Shown here: piece by piece, positions 5,089-61,812 of the stretch
How positions within the stretch are numbered: the first letter of the stretch is position 1
Layout: every line of letters begins with the position of its first letter
Assembly (NCBI GenBank): GCA_947628145.1
Contig: CANQYU010000001.1
Span: 1-61,812, forward strand
Reading direction: 5' to 3'
Origin: an uncultured Bacilli bacterium
GTDB taxonomy: Bacteria; Bacillota_I; Bacilli_A; RF39; UBA660
DNA: 61,812 bases
Made by a program: the position numbers and the translations under genes
Notes under the pieces: generated by a model
What the model saw: the letters and a program-made list of their open reading frames with translations, nothing else
Databases searched by the model: none
What the model was told of the DNA's origin: nothing

Positions 5089-6543
5089 CTAAGATGGTAT
5101 GTATGGGTCGCCTACTGTTCCTTTACCTGAAAATTTTGTAGTAGCTTTCAAATTTATTACTGGACGCACACCAGGCTCAGTAAAGTACACGCCGTCGCTG
5201 CCGAGGCCGCCACCAGGAGTCACATAGAACACGCGAGCATAACCGCTAGTGTAAAAGATATGCGGAGACATGGTCCAGTAGTATTGGTTTGTATATAAGT
5301 AATAACTTGAATTTGCTGAGTCCCAGAAACCACCAGCTAATAGTACCTCATCCGCTGTTATTAACCCTATTGGATATTGTAGTAATTTATTTCCTTTACT
5401 AGCTCCATTCTTGGTAAATAAATCTCTTTCATAGGCAGCGGCGTTTACATCTACACTTGTTTCTTGGTCTGTTGCTGTCGCTGCACTTACTCCACATTTT
5501 AATGTTGGATACTGTGTTTTTCTTGTAGAACCACTCTTTACTACTCTTCCCCACATTGCATAACTTGTTGCCGATGTTCCAAAACCTGTTCCTGAATCAT
5601 AACTTGAATTTACACCAATTACTTTTTGTCTATCATTACAAAAGCCTGCATCTTGGTCTATATATTTGTCATATGTTGCTAAATTCTTTCCATACCAATC
5701 ATTTAAATATGTTGCAATATCACTTGGAGTTGTTCCTTTATGAGCTTCGTCATAAGTACTACTTGCTTTTCCTAAATTATAATATCCTACATATGTATTA
5801 TCATTATATGGAGATGTTTTATATGCTAAGGCTGTTAATTGGGTATTTGTATATGCTGTATTTGTACAACTTGTGCTTCCGCATTGATATATTAATCTTA
5901 ATGTTCCATCGCCATTTATTCGGATTATTCTCCATCTTTTATTAGCAAATTGTACCCAGTTATTATTTGCTTGGCCTCTAAAAAAATAACTTGTTCCATC
6001 ATTATCTGGGGCCGCATATAATGTATTTTCATGATTTGCTGTATCAACTCCAGTTATTTTCATTACTCCGCTTGGGTCTGTTCCATCAAAACCGGTTCCA
6101 CTTTTAGCTGTAGTATAATTAGGAAATAATTTAGCAAGTGTATCTTCCGCAGTTGGCAATTTTTCAAACTCTAAATAACACTTTGTTCCTTTTGTGGTAT
6201 AGGGTGTTATGTTTAATATTCCATTTTCATATGTTAATTCTATTGTATCACTTGGTGTGTCTGTATCTCCTACTTTTTCAGTACAATAGCTTGTATCTTT
6301 TAAGACATATCCATTTCCAGGCATAATATCACTTGGAGCGTCATCTATTGTTATACTTACTATTTCTAAATCCACTAAACTATAATTTATGCTTCCTTTA
6401 GCTAATTCTATACTCTCGGTATTCCTATAATTTGCTCTACTTGTTAAATAATTGATTAATATTACTAATAATAAAGTTATTATTACTCCTATAACTATAT
6501 ATTTAAGTTTATTATTATTTAATTCTAATCTTTCTATTCTCAT
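5089..6543 (-). CDS. Paralog A of a 3-copy secreted/anchored surface-protein family: N-terminal TM anchor, Ig-like module, DUF1566/DUF6273-like C-terminal domain with a hypervariable patch
   Basis: 484 aa with RBS AGGAGAT. Roughly 85-90% nucleotide identity by eye to 19754-20800 over about 1 kb. Conserved blocks: AKSGTGFDGTDPSGVMK, WRIIRINGDGTLRLIYQCG, PIGLITADEVLLAGG, YYWTMSP, GVRPVINL. Confidence 0.85.
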   Translation of the reverse strand: MRIERLELNNNKLKYIVIGVIITLLLVILINYLTSRANYRNTESIELAKGSINYSLVDLEIVSITIDDAPSDIMPGNGYVLKDTSYCTEKVGDTDTPSDTIELTYENGILNITPYTTKGTKCYLEFEKLPTAEDTLAKLFPNYTTAKSGTGFDGTDPSGVMKITGVDTANHENTLYAAPDNDGTSYFFRGQANNNWVQFANKRWRIIRINGDGTLRLIYQCGSTSCTNTAYTNTQLTALAYKTSPYNDNTYVGYYNLGKASSTYDEAHKGTTPSDIATYLNDWYGKNLATYDKYIDQDAGFCNDRQKVIGVNSSYDSGTGFGTSATSYAMWGRVVKSGSTRKTQYPTLKCGVSAATATDQETSVDVNAAAYERDLFTKNGASKGNKLLQYPIGLITADEVLLAGGFWDSANSSYYLYTNQYYWTMSPHIFYTSGYARVFYVTPGGGLGSDGVYFTEPGVRPVINLKATTKFSGKGTVGDPYIPS

Positions 6544-6660: not shown

Positions 6661-6882
6661 ATGGAAAGATTAAGAGATATTAGAGAAGACCATGATTTAA
6701 GACAGGCGGATATTGCTAAATTATTAAATGTAACTCAACAAACATATTCGCGGTATGAAAGTGGCGAAATAAGTATAGATAAAGATAGTTTAATTAAATT
6801 AGCGACTTTTTATAATACATCTGTTGACTATATATTAGGTTTAACGGACGAAAGAAAGCCCTATCCAAAGAGTATTTTATAG
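6661..6882 (+). CDS. XRE-family HTH transcriptional regulator (copy 1)
   Basis: 73 aa. LRQADIAKLLNVTQQTYSRYESG is a Cro/C1-type HTH. RBS GGTGA. Confidence 0.85.
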   Translation: MERLRDIREDHDLRQADIAKLLNVTQQTYSRYESGEISIDKDSLIKLATFYNTSVDYILGLTDERKPYPKSIL

Positions 6883-7001
6883 TCTTAAATATATTTTACT
6901 ATATATAACAATATGTTATATTAATAATATTTTATAACAAAATGTTTTATATGTCAATACAACAATTTGTTTTAAATTAAAATATATATGAGGTTATATA
7001 T

Positions 7002-7247
7002 ATGATAGACGAAATTAAATTAGAAAGATTAAAGGGGTTAAGGGAAAATAAAGATTTAAAACAAGAAGATATTGCTAAACTACTTAATATTACTCAAAGT
7101 GCTTATAGTTATTATGAAATTGGGAAAAGACAAATACCTAGTGATGCTTTAATTAAACTAGCAACTTTCTATAATACATCTGTTGATTATATACTAGGTT
7201 TAACGGACGAAAGAAAGCCTTATCCAAAGAGTATTTTAAATAAATAA
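7002..7247 (+). CDS. XRE-family HTH transcriptional regulator (copy 2, tandem duplicate)
   Basis: 81 aa. The C-terminal 30 aa (LIKLATFYNTSVDYILGLTDERKPYPKSIL) are identical to copy 1. RBS GAGGT. Confidence 0.85.
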   Translation: MIDEIKLERLKGLRENKDLKQEDIAKLLNITQSAYSYYEIGKRQIPSDALIKLATFYNTSVDYILGLTDERKPYPKSILNK

Positions 7248-7285: not shown

Positions 7286-8035
7286 TTATGAAAGTTTTAA
7301 TAATTTTTGCCAAGTATATTTTTTGGCAGTTATGACACCATCAACTAAATTTCCTTTGAGACCGACAATTTTTTCTTGATATTCTTTGATTATTTTGGCC
7401 ATTTGAGGGCCATATATTCCATCAATGCCATATTTTCCTAAATCATAACCTAAACTTTGTAAATAGGCTTGTAAGACTTTAACAACAGGATGTTTATTGT
7501 TTTTAGTTTGGGATAAAGTGATAGTTTTATTTAAAGTTTCTTGGTTTGGAAGCTCAGTAACACTTACATTAAGTGCTTGTTGTACCCCTTTTAAAAAAGT
7601 ATGAAAATTATTTTCTGGTTCTTTATTTAAATTAAAAGGATTATCATTCATTAAATAAGGTTTAGGGTCTTGATAGCCTTTATTATAAATAGCAAAATGA
7701 ACATTATAACCAGTCGCATTACCGGTTTTACCCATAGTCGCGATTACTTGCCCTTTTTTTACGGTTTCACCCTTTTTTACTCTAATAGTATTTTTAGCGA
7801 GATGGAAATAACGATGTTCTATTCCATTAGTTTTAATGCTGACCCAGTAACCCCCTCCACTGGAGTCATAGCCAGTAAAATTAACTATTCCATCTTCGAC
7901 GGCGACTATATCGTCAACTTTATTAGGACCGACAAAATCCATACCATTATGGGCTTTACGATTAGAATTACGGGTTTTATAATCGCTAGTTAAATAATGA
8001 ATACCTCCTTTTAAAATATTATTTTTAAGTTCCAT
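7286..8035 (-). CDS. Endolysin-like M23 peptidase with C-terminal peptidoglycan-binding (PG_binding_1) domain
   Basis: HNGMDF (HxxxD), YFHL and GYNVHF motifs, plus LQAYLQSLGYDLGKYGIDGIYGP. I place the start at ATG 8035, which overlaps the holin stop; the ORF track extends to a GTG at 8056. Confidence 0.8.
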   Translation of the reverse strand: MELKNNILKGGIHYLTSDYKTRNSNRKAHNGMDFVGPNKVDDIVAVEDGIVNFTGYDSSGGGYWVSIKTNGIEHRYFHLAKNTIRVKKGETVKKGQVIATMGKTGNATGYNVHFAIYNKGYQDPKPYLMNDNPFNLNKEPENNFHTFLKGVQQALNVSVTELPNQETLNKTITLSQTKNNKHPVVKVLQAYLQSLGYDLGKYGIDGIYGPQMAKIIKEYQEKIVGLKGNLVDGVITAKKYTWQKLLKLS

Positions 8036-8432
8036 CTTGACTGCTATTTTGACCACCCTCTATTTTCTTTAAAGCATCATATAATTTTTGAGGAAGAGGT
8101 AAACCCATATTAGACCAGTTTTTTAATATAGACAAGCCTTCATTCGCGGCAAAGAAATAAATAGCCATATTTCTAATCATTAAACTGTCCCCGAGAATTT
8201 TATCAATTAAACTAGATAAAGCAATTATAATTAAATAGCCAAATTTTTTAATAATATTTTTAAGGCCAATAGTGTTATTTAAAGTTTTATTATAAATCAC
8301 TTTACATAAATTAGTGAATATTTCTAATAAAATAAAAGCAATAAATATAGCTAAAGTTTTATCAAATTTACCAAATAAGAAAGTTAGAATATTTAAAATA
8401 AAACTGGGATTTATATTTAAAATATAAAACAT
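8025..8432 (-). CDS. Holin (toxin-secretion/phage-lysis holin family, phage_holin_4_1 type)
   Basis: 135 aa with multiple TM segments. The conserved ANEGLSILKNWSNMGLPLPQKLYDALKKI block is typical of the TcdE-like holin family. Confidence 0.8.
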   Translation of the reverse strand: MFYILNINPSFILNILTFLFGKFDKTLAIFIAFILLEIFTNLCKVIYNKTLNNTIGLKNIIKKFGYLIIIALSSLIDKILGDSLMIRNMAIYFFAANEGLSILKNWSNMGLPLPQKLYDALKKIEGGQNSSQDGT

Positions 8433-19647: not shown

Positions 19648-19672
19648 AAAAAAAGTGAAGATTATTCTTCAC
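19648..19672 (-). terminator. Intrinsic terminator downstream of paralog B
   Basis: Minus-strand hairpin GTGAAGA-ATAA-TCTTCAC followed by T7. Confidence 0.7.
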
Positions 19673-19753
19673 TTAATATGTTAGGCCTTGGTAAAGGGTT
19701 TGGCCTACTTGCCCATATATAATTAAAGCAATATGAGCAAGTTATTTTTTTTA

Positions 19754-21688
19754 TTAAGTTGCTACAACAAATGGAGTGTCAACAGAACCATTTCCTCCTG
19801 AGAAAGTTATATCTGCACGTAAATTTATTACTGGACGCACACCAAGAGTAGCGGTGCCCACAACGTTGTAGCTGAGGTTGCCATCACTATTCACATCGAA
19901 TACGTAAGCACTACCATTAGCGAGCAAGGCATACGGAGACATTACCCAATAATCTTGGTGTGTATATAAGTAATAACTTGAATTACCAGTGCCCAAGAAT
20001 CCACCAGCTAATAATACCTCATCCGCCGTTATTAAGCCTATTGGATGTTCTAACAATTTATTCCCTTTACTAGCTCCTGCTTTAGTAAATAAATCTCTTT
20101 TATAAGCAGCGTTGTTTACATCTACACTTGTTTCTTGTTCTGTTGCTGTCGTTGCACTTACTCCACATTTTAATGTTGGGTATTGTGTTTGTCTTTTAGA
20201 ATTACTCTTTTCTACTCTTCCCCATGCTGCATAACTTGTTGCTGATGTTCCAAAACCTGTTCCATCGTAACTTGAATTTACACCTGTTACCTTTTGTCTA
20301 TCATTGCAAAATCCGGCATCTTGGTCTATGTAGTTGTCATATGTTGCTAGCAAATTATCTCTGTACCAATCATTTAAATAACTTGCTATTGTACTTGGAG
20401 TTGTTCCTTGATGGGCTTCGTCATAAGTACTACTTGTTTTCCCAAAATTGTAATATCCTACGTAGGTATTATCAGTATACGGAGAAGATTTATATTCTTT
20501 TGTTGTTAATTGGGTATTTGTATTTGTTGTATCTTTACAACCTATATTTCCACATTGATATATTAATCTAAGTGTTCCATCTCCATTTATTCTAATTATT
20601 CTCCATCTCTTATTAGCAAACTCTACCCAATTATTATTTGCTTGCCCTCTAAAGAAATAACTTGTTCCATCATTATCGGGAGCTTCATATAAAATATTTT
20701 CGTGATTTTCTGTATCTACTCCAGTCACTTTCATTACGCCACTTGGGTCTGTTCCATCAAATCCTGTTCCACTTTTAGCCGTAGTAAAACTTTCTTCTCC
20801 GCCTTTAGTTTCATTTAACTTAGCAAGCATACCTTCTGGAGTTGGTTTATAGAAATATAATACACAACTAGTTCCACTTTGAGTTAAGTTTGATACTAAT
20901 ACTCCATGGTTTCCATTATCCCATATTGGAGTTGCTCCATTTGTACACATACTTTTTTCTGTATTTAAAATATATCCATCTTCTTTACTTGGTATCTCGT
21001 TTTGTTGTTTATATTTCCCATTTTCTTGTTCTACGTTTATTGCTAATATATTTATATCTGGTTCAGCATCGCTTTCCCCTATTGTTACCTCTCCACTAAA
21101 CACTCCATTATTATCATAACTTTGGTCTTCACTTTCGTTTGGATATTCTATTATGACATAATAACTTACTTTCTCTCCCGTTGGACTCGCATTTATAAAT
21201 TCGTCTTGCACTAATATTTCTTGATTACTTGTTATTGTTCCCTCTCCTACTGGGGAACCTAATTTATCGATGTTACTTATTTTACATTCTTCATAGACCA
21301 TTTGTCCACCGGCTACATTTTGACTTTTTCTATTACAACTTGATGTTACATCTTGTAACTCTGTTACTTTATATACGGTATATTTTAATTTTGTTTTTAA
21401 AGTATTAGTTATTTCTTTATATATTACATTATAGGAAACTAAAATATTATCTCCGGTTGCTTTTACATCTATTCTTGATACATCTTTATGGCCAGGAAGC
21501 ATATCTTTTGCATTAAAATTTAATCTTCCATATATTTCTATGGTTGCTCCATTTATATTCGCGGTTGTTACTTTAGTTTTGGCTCCATCTCCTTGAAACA
21601 ATGTTTTTCCTACAAAAAATGCTAAACTTACCCCTATTCCTAATATTAATACACTTAGTAATACTATTATTCTTTTATTTTTTGTCAT
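19754..21688 (-). CDS. Paralog B of the surface-protein family: TasA/camelysin-like N-terminal module, Ig-like module, DUF1566/DUF6273-like C-terminal domain with a hypervariable patch
   Basis: 644 aa. The N-terminus MTKNKRIIVLLSVLILGIGVSLAFFVGKT...MLPGHKDVSRIDVKATG resembles a SipW-type signal plus TasA/M73 fold. The C-terminal ~330 aa are paralogous to 5089-6543 and 60406-61812. Confidence 0.85.
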   Translation of the reverse strand: MTKNKRIIVLLSVLILGIGVSLAFFVGKTLFQGDGAKTKVTTANINGATIEIYGRLNFNAKDMLPGHKDVSRIDVKATGDNILVSYNVIYKEITNTLKTKLKYTVYKVTELQDVTSSCNRKSQNVAGGQMVYEECKISNIDKLGSPVGEGTITSNQEILVQDEFINASPTGEKVSYYVIIEYPNESEDQSYDNNGVFSGEVTIGESDAEPDINILAINVEQENGKYKQQNEIPSKEDGYILNTEKSMCTNGATPIWDNGNHGVLVSNLTQSGTSCVLYFYKPTPEGMLAKLNETKGGEESFTTAKSGTGFDGTDPSGVMKVTGVDTENHENILYEAPDNDGTSYFFRGQANNNWVEFANKRWRIIRINGDGTLRLIYQCGNIGCKDTTNTNTQLTTKEYKSSPYTDNTYVGYYNFGKTSSTYDEAHQGTTPSTIASYLNDWYRDNLLATYDNYIDQDAGFCNDRQKVTGVNSSYDGTGFGTSATSYAAWGRVEKSNSKRQTQYPTLKCGVSATTATEQETSVDVNNAAYKRDLFTKAGASKGNKLLEHPIGLITADEVLLAGGFLGTGNSSYYLYTHQDYWVMSPYALLANGSAYVFDVNSDGNLSYNVVGTATLGVRPVINLRADITFSGGNGSVDTPFVVAT

Positions 21689-21718: not shown

Positions 21719-21780
21719 GTACCTTATTAAGGTTCCTACACTATATTAATAATAGCATTGTAAAGGTACCTTGTCAAGGT
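21719..21780. promoter_or_regulatory. Two copies of the palindrome GTACCTT-N3-AAGGT (candidate operators) in the paralog-B / HTH divergent region
   Basis: ACCTTATTAAGGT at 21721-21733 and ACCTTGTCAAGGT at 21768-21780. The first lies between putative -35 and -10 elements of paralog B. The second overlaps TTGTCA, a putative -35 of the HTH gene. Confidence 0.4.
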
Positions 21781-21834
21781 ATTTTTTAGCCTAATAATTG
21801 GTTTTTATAGTAACTTTGATATATGGAGGTATGT

Positions 21835-22050
21835 ATGAAACTTATTGCAAATAGCTATGAACCAAAAGATATTTTTAAAATACTTAGAGAATGGACAGAC
21901 TTAACTCAAGAAGAATTAGCTAAAGAAATAAATAAAAGCAAATTCGGTTTAAAAAAATATGAAAATGGAGAAAATCGTTTTTATTTTGAAACAATATTAG
22001 AGATATGTAATAAACATAATATAACTATTACTTTTGAAAAAGGGCAATAA
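21835..22050 (+). CDS. Small HTH DNA-binding protein (XRE-like)
   Basis: 71 aa. The segment LREWTDLTQEELAKEINKSKFGLKKYENG is an HTH. Start at ATG 21835, after GGAGG. Confidence 0.7.
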   Translation: MKLIANSYEPKDIFKILREWTDLTQEELAKEINKSKFGLKKYENGENRFYFETILEICNKHNITITFEKGQ

Positions 22051-51226: not shown

Positions 51227-51580
51227 ATGAATGGAAATTTTTTTAGTACGCCAACTTTTCCAACTAATAATAATTTAGAAAGTCCCCCAGGTAATATTAA
51301 TTTTAGTAGTACTAGTCTGCCGATGGAACAAAGTTATATTGAAAATATTTTACGACTTAATAAAGGTAAAAAAGTTAAAGCTTATTATTCTTACCCTGAT
51401 TCCAACGAATGGCGTGATAAAATTTATGATGGAGTAATTGAAGAAGCTGGAAGAGACCATTTAATTATGAGTGATGCCAAAACGGGAGATTGGTATTTAC
51501 TTAGAATGATTTATTTAAATTATGTTACTTTTGAAGAAAGAATAAATTATAGTCATGATTATTCAGAAAAAACGTTTTAG
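51227..51580 (+). CDS. gerQ: Spore coat protein GerQ
   Basis: EQSYIENILRLNKGKKVKAYYSY...GVIEEAGRDHLIMSD..TGDWYLLRMIYLNYVTFEE matches the GerQ/YwdL core. Confidence 0.8.
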   Translation: MNGNFFSTPTFPTNNNLESPPGNINFSSTSLPMEQSYIENILRLNKGKKVKAYYSYPDSNEWRDKIYDGVIEEAGRDHLIMSDAKTGDWYLLRMIYLNYVTFEERINYSHDYSEKTF

Positions 51581-60405: not shown

Positions 60406-61812
60406 TTATGATGGTATATATGGGTCGTCTACTGTTCCACTACCTGAAAAATTTGTAGTAGCTTTCAGATTTATTACTGGACGCACACCATAAGGGCTAC
60501 TCACGTTGCCGTTGCCGGTATTGAGGTCACCACTAGTGTTTACAATGAACATGTAAGCATAGCTACTACTAAAGTGAGATGGGGTCATAGTCCAATAGTA
60601 CTTATTTGTATATAAATAATAGTTTAAGTTTGCTTCTCCAGCTTTCCCTCCGGCCATGGCTACTTCATCCGCAGTAATTAATCCTACTGGATATTGTAGC
60701 ATTCCATTTCCTTCCTCTGTTTCGTCACTCGTTGTGAATAAATCTCTTTGTAATGCAAACTGATTTACTATTTTTGTTTTTAGGTCTACTCCACATCTTA
60801 AATCTGGTGTTTGAGTTTTCAAATAGCTCGAAGCATCAGAAAATCTATCAACTGCGGCATAACTTGTTGCACTATTATAACTGCTACCATATCCAGTATT
60901 ATAGTCACTACTTCTGTATACTTGAGCAATTTGCCTATCATTACAAAAGCCAGTATTTCCACTTAAATATTTTCTATATTCTTCGGGTATTCCTTTTTCT
61001 TTGCCTTCAAAGCTTCCCGCTCCTTCATACCAATCGTTTATATATTTGGCTATGTCACTCGGATTTGTTTTTAAACTTTTATGAGCAACAGCATAATCAC
61101 TTGCACTTGGTGTTCCAAAATAATATCCTACATATGTATTATCATTATTAGGATTACTTTTGTATGCTACCCCTGTGTCTCCATTTATTTGGGTATTATT
61201 TCCTGTTGTGTCAGTACAATTTGCACTACCACATTGGTATATTAAGCGAAGTGTTCCATCTCCATTTATTCGGATTATCCTCCATCTTTTATTGGCAAAT
61301 TGTACCCAGTTATCTTGAACATTTCCTCGGAATACATAACTTGTTCCATAGTTATCTTCGGTTGTATATAATTTTCCTGTTGAACTTGATGTATCTCTTT
61401 CGCTTATTGTTGGCATAGGAAGAATTGTATAGTTGTTTCCACCCTTAGCTTCCTGTAATTTTGCAAGCATATTTTCCGCGGTTGGCATTTTCTCAAAATA
61501 TAATACACATCCTGTTCCACTTTGGGTTAAATTATCTACATAAAATCTCTTATTAATATAATCCCATACTGGTTTAGCTTCATTAGAACACATGCTTTGT
61601 TCATTTAATGACCATTTACCTTCTGTTGGCATTTTATCTGCTTCTTCATATTCTCCTGTTTCTTCGTTTTGTATATACATTGCCATTATTTCTATATCTG
61701 GTTTGGCATCACTTGCTTCGACTGTTACTACTCCGTCAAATCCTAATCCTATATCTTCATTTTGACTTGTCTCTTTATTTGGATATTCTAATATGACATA
61801 ATAATATACTGT
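60406..61812 (-). CDS. Paralog C of the surface-protein family (5' end lies beyond the window edge; partial)
   Basis: The frame stays open upstream of the first Met to position 61812 (..YYYVILEYPNKETSQNEDIGLGFDGVVTVEASDAKPDIEIMAMYIQ..). That stretch is collinear with paralog B residues ..YYVIIEYPNESEDQ..DINILAI.. The C-terminal 20 aa are nearly identical to paralog A. Confidence 0.85.
   Translation of the reverse strand, partial: TVYYYVILEYPNKETSQNEDIGLGFDGVVTVEASDAKPDIEIMAMYIQNEETGEYEEADKMPTEGKWSLNEQSMCSNEAKPVWDYINKRFYVDNLTQSGTGCVLYFEKMPTAENMLAKLQEAKGGNNYTILPMPTISERDTSSSTGKLYTTEDNYGTSYVFRGNVQDNWVQFANKRWRIIRINGDGTLRLIYQCGSANCTDTTGNNTQINGDTGVAYKSNPNNDNTYVGYYFGTPSASDYAVAHKSLKTNPSDIAKYINDWYEGAGSFEGKEKGIPEEYRKYLSGNTGFCNDRQIAQVYRSSDYNTGYGSSYNSATSYAAVDRFSDASSYLKTQTPDLRCGVDLKTKIVNQFALQRDLFTTSDETEEGNGMLQYPVGLITADEVAMAGGKAGEANLNYYLYTNKYYWTMTPSHFSSSYAYMFIVNTSGDLNTGNGNVSSPYGVRPVINLKATTNFSGSGTVDDPYIPS

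Follow-up and report, generated by a model that had tools for sequence, protein, structure and literature searches.

Background

In the cellular diversity-generating retroelements (DGRs) that serve several targets, a single template repeat (TR) lies beside the gene of the reverse transcriptase (RT), and the remote variable regions (VRs) match this TR except for A-to-N changes (PMC5758913). Among the domains targeted by DGRs is DUF6273, which is C-type-lectin-like and has the VR at its C-terminal end (PMC10743442, PMC11792537). Is there any sign of such a system in gut Bacilli of the RF39 type? We address this question with one complete NCBI contig of 61,812 nt (CANQYU010000001.1, assembly GCA_947628145.1) from the metagenome-assembled genome (MAG) of an uncultured Bacilli bacterium. 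This contig, called the window below, has a G+C content of 28.8%. It holds three paralogous genes, A, B and C, each with a short divergent patch in the C-terminal part of its open reading frame (ORF), all on the minus strand. The subject here is the patch of paralog B at 19844-19933, which is probably the variable region of a DGR-type target gene whose template and RT are located elsewhere.

The patch of paralog B and its mutational footprint

The genes, patches and boundaries concerned are as follows.

19754-21688, minus strand: gene of paralog B, 644 aa, from its ORF and translation
19844-19933, minus strand: VR-like patch of paralog B, 30 codons, residues 586-615, YALLANGSAYVFDVNSDGNLSYNVVGTATL
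19934-19942, minus strand: conserved 5' boundary of patch B, ATGTCTCCG (MSP), with an exact second copy at 5263-5271
19823-19843, minus strand: conserved 3' boundary of patch B, GGTGTGCGTCCAGTAATAAAT (GVRPVIN), a 21-mer identical in the three paralogs of the window
5089-6543, minus strand: gene of paralog A, 484 aa, patch at 5173-5262, boundaries at 5152-5172 and 5263-5271
60406-61686, minus strand: gene of paralog C, 426 aa, patch at 60490-60582 (31 codons)

The protein of paralog B consists of an N-terminal hydrophobic membrane anchor, a variable middle and a conserved C-terminal domain of 349 aa that contains the patch near its end, and it is presumably surface-exposed. Read along the minus strand, ATG TCT CCG (19942-19934) is followed by the 30 codons (19933-19844), by the 21-mer (19843-19823) and by about 23 codons more. 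A preliminary description of this DNA had read these 30 codons, had counted 43/90 G+C and 19/90 A in them and had noted that A and B share invariant flanks, namely ATGTCTCCG upstream and the 21-mer at 19823-19843; all of this is borne out. Codons 6, 15, 19 and 23 of B (AAT, AAT, AAC and AAC) indeed face AGC, ACT, GGC and GAC in A. The 5' boundary occurs exactly twice in the window, compared with 0.04 occurrences expected by chance, and the 21-mer is found at 19823-19843, 5152-5172 and 60469-60489. Paralog C has a looser layout, its 5' boundary having diverged to ATGACCCCA.

The composition of the patch differs strongly from that of its gene. The G+C content is 48% in patch B and 33% in the remaining gene; among all 90-nt windows of the contig, the patch ranks within the highest 0.86%. 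Only 1 of its 30 codons has A at the third position, compared with 305 of 614 in the remaining gene (p=1.3e-7), and in pyrimidine-ending codons the ratio of C to T at that position is 12:14 in the patch and 52:210 outside it (p=0.005). The sister copies behave alike: third-position A is found in 0/30, 1/30 and 2/31 codons of patches A, B and C, against about 49% elsewhere, as would be expected of templates designed with AAC and AAT codons, and patches A and C have 54% and 44% G+C. Since these shifts are synonymous, selection on amino acids cannot account for them.

Where do the paralogs differ? First and second codon positions differ between A and B at 31/60 sites in the patch versus 72/626 in the conserved C-terminal flank (p=1.6e-12). 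Sorted by codon position, the differences number 16/15/6 in the patch and 12/6/16 in the 83 codons upstream. The third-position differences between A and B match the flank rate (6/30 in the patch, 77/313 in the flank). When B is compared with its paralogs and orthologues, however, A takes part in 7 of 37 third-position differences in the patch versus 325 of 470 in the flanks, and the four p values of the single comparisons lie between 0.025 and 1.5e-4. Because the third-position differences of the patch seldom involve A, the A-free third positions have been retained through paralog and species divergence.

Template repeats in related genomes

The 21-mer GGTGTGCGTCCAGTAATAAAT is present in 23 loci of species-representative genomes, in frame every time, and the hosts are all gut MAGs named 'uncultured Bacilli' or 'Mycoplasma sp. 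CAG' (rabbit, mouse, yak, human). Loci from genomes or contigs of other species that were compared with the window carry L numbers below. Their copies fall into two classes. VR-like copies have a G+C fraction of at least 0.41 and 0-2 third-position A, and share the blocks GCT nAC GTG TTC nAT GTG nAT ... GGC nnC CTC ... GTG; in plain copies the G+C fraction is about 0.30 and third-position A can number as many as 12. The rare codon CCG in the 5' boundary tracks the VR-type copies, whereas plain copies have CCA or CCT.

A search pattern was made by setting A at the variable columns of the conserved VR core, and metagenome contigs were scanned with it. The scan returned three non-coding elements rich in AAC and AAT, of the form AGTCTCCG...GGTGTGCGCCC; they are surrounded by stops in every frame and followed by a conserved tail. 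Further contigs with TRs were reached through a neighbouring gene and through spurious gene-caller ORFs antisense to the TRs, the latter giving 31 additional TR-bearing records. Altogether the searches yielded 11 distinct TR bodies, 102-120 nt in length. They start with (A/T)AGTCTCCG and end with GGTGTGCGCCC (GGTGTGCGTCC in L052), after which they diverge into AATATCC... At this 3' edge the VR reads GGTGTGCGTCC-AGTAATAAAT and the TR reads GGTGTGCGCCC-AATATCC, so that the two share a G+C-rich boundary like that for the initiation of mutagenic homing (IMH). In paralog B the portion common to the TR 3' ends is the G+C-rich 11-mer GGTGTGCGTCC (19833-19843). One TR body (TR24) has no third-position A in 28 codons.

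From 5' to 3', an intact TR element has a -10 box, 6-7 nt, GGTTAATCT, a leader of about 25 nt, the body, CAATAYCCTTTTAAACTTA with a hairpin, GCATTAGGRTAC and AGATTARYC. In outline its profile is a body of 27-38 codons rich in AAC and AAT, GGTGTGCGYCC and CAATAYCCTTTTAAACTTA...GCATTAGGRTACAAGATTARYC, on a scaffold of about 220 nt. The leader sequence GGTTAATCT pairs 9/9 with the tail AGATTARYC, and the tail carries compensatory changes. Between two organisms the core and tail keep about 85-90% nucleotide identity, far above the 42% identity of the adjacent target proteins, and for this reason the TR elements are considered to be conserved as RNAs. Judged by these sequences, the TR RNA genes of the relatives appear to be under strong purifying selection. 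No family matching them was found in Rfam. Three loci carry three elements each, recognised by the anatomy described above.

L027, 9580-9800, 11044-11259 and 12405-12624: three TR elements in tandem, in three separate intergenic gaps
L048, 2774-2979, 4120-4342 and 5475-5691, minus strand: three TR elements
L047, 7704-7909, 7991-8171 and 9951-10172, minus strand: three TR elements

Some elements depart from this form. At L025:5550-5680 and L026:4819-4950 the 3' end GGTGTGCGCCC is swapped for a 36-nt insert with the hairpin GTCCTGTTAGGCGCTTGACAGGGC, and the L025 element also has no GGTTAATCT leader; these two may be degraded or differently bounded templates. The first TR of L027 (9624-9730) has CGT, GAT and AGC where its sister TRs have AAT, AAT and AAC, and it contains an in-frame TGA, while the element at L047:7704-7909 has only 15 adenines in 108 nt. 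Both stand in full TR context and look partly 'mutagenised'. As to the surroundings, duplicated genes resembling the DUF1016/YhcG nuclease interleave with the TR elements in L027 and L048, parA is found in both of these loci (with parB too in L027), and yidC-jag in L026. An ORF of 399 aa adjoining the TRs of L025 and L026 was considered as a new polymerase and dropped, having no match in Pfam, NCBIfam or PADLOC, being missing beside other TRs and having no homologue in the window. Likewise, only ordinary genes lie beyond the tRNA in L026, where a mobile element had been considered. The TR module of L026 shows no synteny with the window except the pairing, described below, of a helix-turn-helix (HTH) gene with a target gene.

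Do the variable columns of the VRs coincide with adenines of the TRs? In an alignment of 16 VR-like patches with the TRs, the entropy is 1.52 bits at TR-A columns and 0.61 elsewhere (p=5e-12). As the search pattern was built from VRs, its 27 columns and the flanks were then removed; the columns independent of both give 1.60 bits at TR-A versus 0.80 at others (p=8e-6), and among them A and B differ at 9/11 TR-A columns versus 7/27 others (p=0.003). The bases at TR-A columns are A 203, G 128, T 99 and C 56. The presence of all four bases fits DGR mutagenesis and not deamination. The differences between TR and VR are thus biased to adenines and go towards any base, the TRs used being heterologous. 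A search of the window with the TR profile (nhmmer) matches only the three patches, with B the best (E=1.1e-12), followed by A (E=1.5e-11) and C (E=2.6e-7), and patch B is the best match in the window to TR26 too.

One template or several

The preliminary description had taken A and B for two independent outcomes of one A-rich template. The first half of this idea has held up, in that patch B behaves as a DGR VR, with TRs present in relatives and variable TR-A columns; the single common template has not. A template reconstructed by placing A at every column variable between A and B scores 55.3 bits against the independent TR profile, with 41.8 for B and 36.2 for A. The reconstruction, however, requires 6 third-position adenines and several AAA codons, both avoided by real TRs, which makes one common template unlikely. 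The idea is weakened further by the flank-rate third-position differences between A and B and by the relatives, which hold up to three TRs of differing length and sequence. A search for the reconstructed template in the window, a single contig of a MAG, gave nothing beyond the coding patches. None of the 11 TR bodies fits as the cognate TR of B. Most simply, A and B would depend on separate TRs or would have drifted since their last rewriting. Another protein, P0006, shares the scaffold Y.L..NG.AYVF.VN.DG.L....V of B and differs at the remaining positions. It is probably a further paralog of the same MAG, and in protein comparison it looks as a sibling VR from B's own template would.

Protein fold

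Against the Pfam profile DUF6273 (PF19789, cut-off 23.5 bits), paralogs A and C score 17.9 and 21.2 bits, and B has no match. The sub-threshold matches of A and C fall at profile positions ~113-171 of 172. An AlphaFold2 model of B residues 296-644, built with 76 homologues, has a pLDDT of 97 and a pTM of 0.95. Searched with Foldseek against BFVD, its top matches are phage entries named 'DUF6273 domain-containing protein' (prob 1.00, E from 3e-5 to 3e-4); the TM-scores are low (0.3-0.4) because the query holds several sub-domains. The patch corresponds to model residues 291-320, on beta-strands and hairpins. Patch B is therefore predicted to occupy beta-hairpins at the C-terminal end of a C-type-lectin-like fold of the DUF6273 type. 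The sole significant fold match in PDB of the 349-aa domain (window 19757-20803, minus strand) is the immunoglobulin A (IgA) peptidase of Thomasclavelia ramosa (9qa6, E=1.3e-4, prob 0.99), and a sequence search of PDB with the family domain gave no relative.

Is the patch an active variable region

Since the footprint, the fold and the boundary logic match those of DGRs, the patch can be said to work as the VR of a DGR does; for the genome itself to be counted in the class would depend on the two defining genes, TR and RT. By analogy with characterised DGRs, a mechanism could be proposed as follows. A non-coding TR RNA with the same boundaries (5' GTCTCCG, 3' GGTGTGCGYCC) and with AAC and AAT codons at the variable sites would be reverse-transcribed, with random misincorporation opposite its adenines, and the cDNA would then replace the patch. 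This would explain the variation at codon positions 1 and 2, the C, T and G at third positions, the G+C-rich island and the nucleotide-identical boundaries. We infer that this genome encodes a TR and an RT at some other place, that A and B each depend on a TR of their own and that rewriting is rare or episodic.

A number of observations weigh against this interpretation. Neither a TR nor a fourth copy was found in the window by blastn-short, repeat search, TR-profile nhmmer or the reconstructed template, all of which return only the three coding patches. No DGR-type RT, a clade marked by (I/L)GxxxSQ and YxDD, was found in the 61.8-kb window by scans for YxDD and for multiple motifs or by phmmer with retron-RT and Brt probes, nor in about 435 kb of DNA of the lineage probed with Brt; no RVT_1 gene is listed within ~5-10 kb of the TRs in L026, L047 and L048; and none of the small ORFs in the window matches Avd (PF05635). 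Many DGR targets, not all, have a DNA hairpin or cruciform just downstream; here the 100 nt after the patches contain none (z = 0.44, 1.44 and -0.47). The strict rule that a VR equals its TR at all non-A sites does not hold in any TR/VR pair. L028 is the sole set in which the TRs and a VR-type target come from the same genome, and there the mismatches number 12-18 among 71-79 non-A sites, besides 6-12 gap columns; the best heterologous TR for B mismatches at 14/71 non-A sites, though the cognate TR may be unsampled. Patch B also deviates from bases conserved in TRs, such as GTA for GTG. Near TRs, an RT was met only in L027-L030, and it is a frameshifted retron RT accompanied by a non-coding RNA (ncRNA) of its own. 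Finally, in the scorable 90%-identity clusters of relatives, 0-1 patch columns vary versus 1-39 columns elsewhere, a count that leaves out one cluster inflated by a fragment and two that could not be scored; the invariant patches include two clusters confirmed as VR-type at the DNA level. The cluster of the window's own protein has one member.

Then how should the activity of the patch be judged? The missing enzyme and the invariance between strains argue against current activity. On the other side, the avoidance of third-position A, which free drift in an A+T-rich genome would not be expected to give, and the conservation of TR RNAs in relatives argue for continued template control. We have good confidence that patch B is DGR-derived, while present-day rewriting is possible but unproven and would be infrequent if it occurs. 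A different kind of change is seen at one locus shared by two strains: the target at L027:13065-14339 has 424 aa and a plain patch, its counterpart at L028:11138-12520 has 460 aa and a VR-like patch, and the two share only 51% identity, which makes this the replacement of an allele and not a diversification by point changes.

The retron RT deserves a separate remark. It lies at L027:18866-19782, and likewise in L028, L029 and L030, is Ec107-like (E=6e-116) and is split at an A6 run (GAGAAAAAACAAG) in 4/4 strains. Directly upstream are its own promoter, an a1/a2 pair (AAGCAGCA/TGCTGCTT) and hairpins. The frameshifted gene could be a conserved pseudogene or a slippage-controlled gene. With its own a1/a2 and hairpins, and with the frameshift in all four strains, it is most likely a bystander and not the partner of the TRs. 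The marginal RT match in L017 turned out to be a small protein rich in N and Q and no RT. The ORF near the TRs of L027 has no PF05635 match, and none is listed near the TRs in L027, L047 and L048.

Could patch B be a relic, written by an ancestral DGR whose RT and perhaps TR are now lost or silent, so that B is a frozen paralog? The window with no RT, TR or Avd would agree with this, as would the VR-type relatives without strain-level variation, the third positions of A and B differing at the flank rate, the departures of B from TR-conserved bases and the degraded-looking TRs (L025/L026 with a replaced 3' end, L025 with a deleted leader, L047:7909-7704 with only 15 A). Still, third-position changes in the patch continue to avoid A, which is unexpected under free drift at 29% G+C; the TR RNA genes of relatives seem to be under strong purifying selection; and the 3' boundary is nucleotide-identical in all three paralogs. 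We therefore regard a relic as unlikely, yet as a case to be taken seriously.

Two explanations dispense with an RT altogether. In one, the TR-like elements are silent donors and cassettes are exchanged by gene conversion between short conserved boundaries. There are several donor-like elements per genome with conserved flanks and no RT linked to them, the allele swap described above concerns one locus, and A and C are 96% identical over the 50 nt downstream of the patch. But copying from a donor should be faithful, whereas the patches differ from the TRs mainly at adenines and towards all three other bases. In addition, boundaries of only 7-11 nt are probably too short for RecA-type exchange, and the TR elements appear to have their own promoters and a structured, end-paired RNA architecture. 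Such exchange is thus very improbable as the origin of patch B. The other is ordinary divergence of a surface loop under diversifying selection, with the composition a coincidence. It would suit a patch predicted to be a surface hairpin of a binding-type domain, in old paralogs (53-63% identity) that differ at non-adenine sites too. It leaves unexplained, however, the synonymous bias to C-ending codons and why A is almost missing from third positions. Nor does it say why non-coding elements that were found independently should carry adenines at just the columns that vary, or why such elements exist at all. This explanation is already disfavoured and hardly merits belief. Despite the points against it, a DGR-type variable region with its template and RT elsewhere is the reading we prefer.

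Regulators, paralogs and neighbouring genes

Signals of transcription and regulatory genes flank the paralogs, as listed here.

21749-21777, minus strand: promoter-like site of gene B, TTGACA, 17 nt, TATTAT, with TG in front, 11/12 consensus positions (a consensus match only)
19653-19674, minus strand: terminator-like hairpin and T-run downstream of gene B, a sequence feature
21823-22050, plus strand: HTH_3 (XRE-type) regulator gene upstream of B and divergent from it, Pfam HTH_3, E=1.1e-7
6661-7247, plus strand: two tandem HTH_3 genes (6661-6882 and 7002-7247) divergent from paralog A

The arrangement of an HTH gene followed by a target thus occurs at paralog A as well, and is also found at loci L026, L027, L036 and L047. 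A divergent HTH_3 gene of its own before many a paralog suggests individually regulated expression.

The paralogs of the window are 53-63% identical to one another and are old. Despite a protein identity of 53% overall, the 50 nt directly downstream of the patch are 96% identical between A and C (5124-5173 and 60441-60490), and paralog B departs from this sequence after 24 nt. The segment shared by A and C may reflect local gene conversion. The N-terminus of paralog A has a weak pilin-like match in NCBIfam (E=0.059), and at L038:4083-6258, a few kb upstream of a family member, a T2SSF platform protein and a prepilin peptidase (Peptidase_A24) are encoded.

Adjoining the regulators of paralog A, window positions 7286-8432 (minus strand) encode a holin of the phage type (PF05105) together with an M23 peptidase that carries a peptidoglycan-binding domain; the surroundings of this pair are otherwise housekeeping genes, with IleRS and, further along, rpoB/rpoC. 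Viral collections gave 0 matches to the 21-mer, to the TR core and to the TR tail, and no DNA or protein match to the family was found in phage and plasmid records. At 51227-51580 (plus strand) there is a homologue of the spore-coat protein GerQ (E=1.4e-34). Given this homologue and the peptidoglycan enzymes, this organism is no Mycoplasma without a cell wall, whatever the names of related MAGs suggest.

Implications

There is a further question of concern, how several TRs and targets could work together. Possibly, and we put this forward tentatively, the DGR is a dispersed one, in which several autonomous TR genes, up to three per locus and there in tandem or near one another, each with its own promoter, serve at least five surface paralogs in trans through an unlinked and maybe non-canonical RT, patch B being one read-out. 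The nearby retron-type RT could, with low probability, be the enzyme of such a system, its A6 frameshift acting as an on/off switch; such a switch would explain the stability of the patch between strains. Pipelines for finding DGRs start from an RT gene with an adjacent TR, and separate multi-copy TR genes with scattered targets would escape them. A large survey recorded no DGR in Tenericutes/Mollicutes, and the literature that could be searched has none from gut Bacilli of the RF39 type or named 'Mycoplasma sp. CAG'. If confirmed, the present case would give DGRs a new host clade and a new architecture, with several TRs of differing length, each possibly paired with its own class of paralogs. 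It would also offer, in the compact and conserved RNA scaffold of the TRs (about 220 nt), a candidate for trials of programmable mutagenesis. A membrane-anchored lectin-like family, each member with an HTH regulator, points to an adaptive interface with the gut environment.

Comparison with known systems

Silent cassettes, such as Neisseria pilS and Mycoplasma genitalium MgPar, resemble the present case in that several non-expressed, donor-like copies match the variable segment of surface paralogs. They differ in that here the differences between donor and target are adenine-biased, and the donors look, by their sequence features, like transcribed structured RNAs. Retron ncRNAs (msr-msd with a1/a2) offer another likeness: the TR 5' end GGTTAATCT pairs with the 3' AGATTARYC and would close the RNA as a1/a2 do, and in one organism a retron-type RT stands 6.5 kb from the TR array. 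The a1/a2 and hairpins of that retron, however, share no motif with the TR elements, and the TR/VR homology leaves out the tail, as in DGRs. Retron RTs are not known as adenine mutagenisers.

The DGR of Bordetella phage BPP-1 shows the same basic design, with a C-terminal VR on a lectin-like fold, a non-coding TR rich in AAC and AAT, variation at TR adenines towards any base, and a G+C-rich 3' boundary common to TR and VR with divergence after it (IMH versus IMH*). In BPP-1, however, mtd with its VR, bbp7 (between mtd and TR), the TR and brt span about 3 kb, while here there is no RT or Avd in the window or beside the TRs. Here each TR is an RNA gene in its own right, with a promoter of its own, and a locus holds 1-3 of them; no TR/VR pair among those compared shows the strict A-only relation, and there is no downstream hairpin. 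The DUF6273 targets of phages, in Faecalibacterium prophages (PMC11792537) and tentaclins (PMC10743442), agree with paralog B in the fold found by structure search and in a VR on the C-terminal beta-hairpin. Unlike them, paralog B is a cellular membrane-anchored protein, without sequence match to phage, plasmid or viral records.

The closest precedents are cellular DGRs with remote targets. Compared with those that diversify several targets from one TR, the TRs here are dispersed or in tandem, 102-120 nt long, with no RT within ~5-10 kb. In Treponema denticola, in Legionella and in lineage-4-type DGRs (Wu et al. 2018, PMC5758913), as in the window, the targets are remote chromosomal paralogs that encode surface proteins and stand in a non-phage context.

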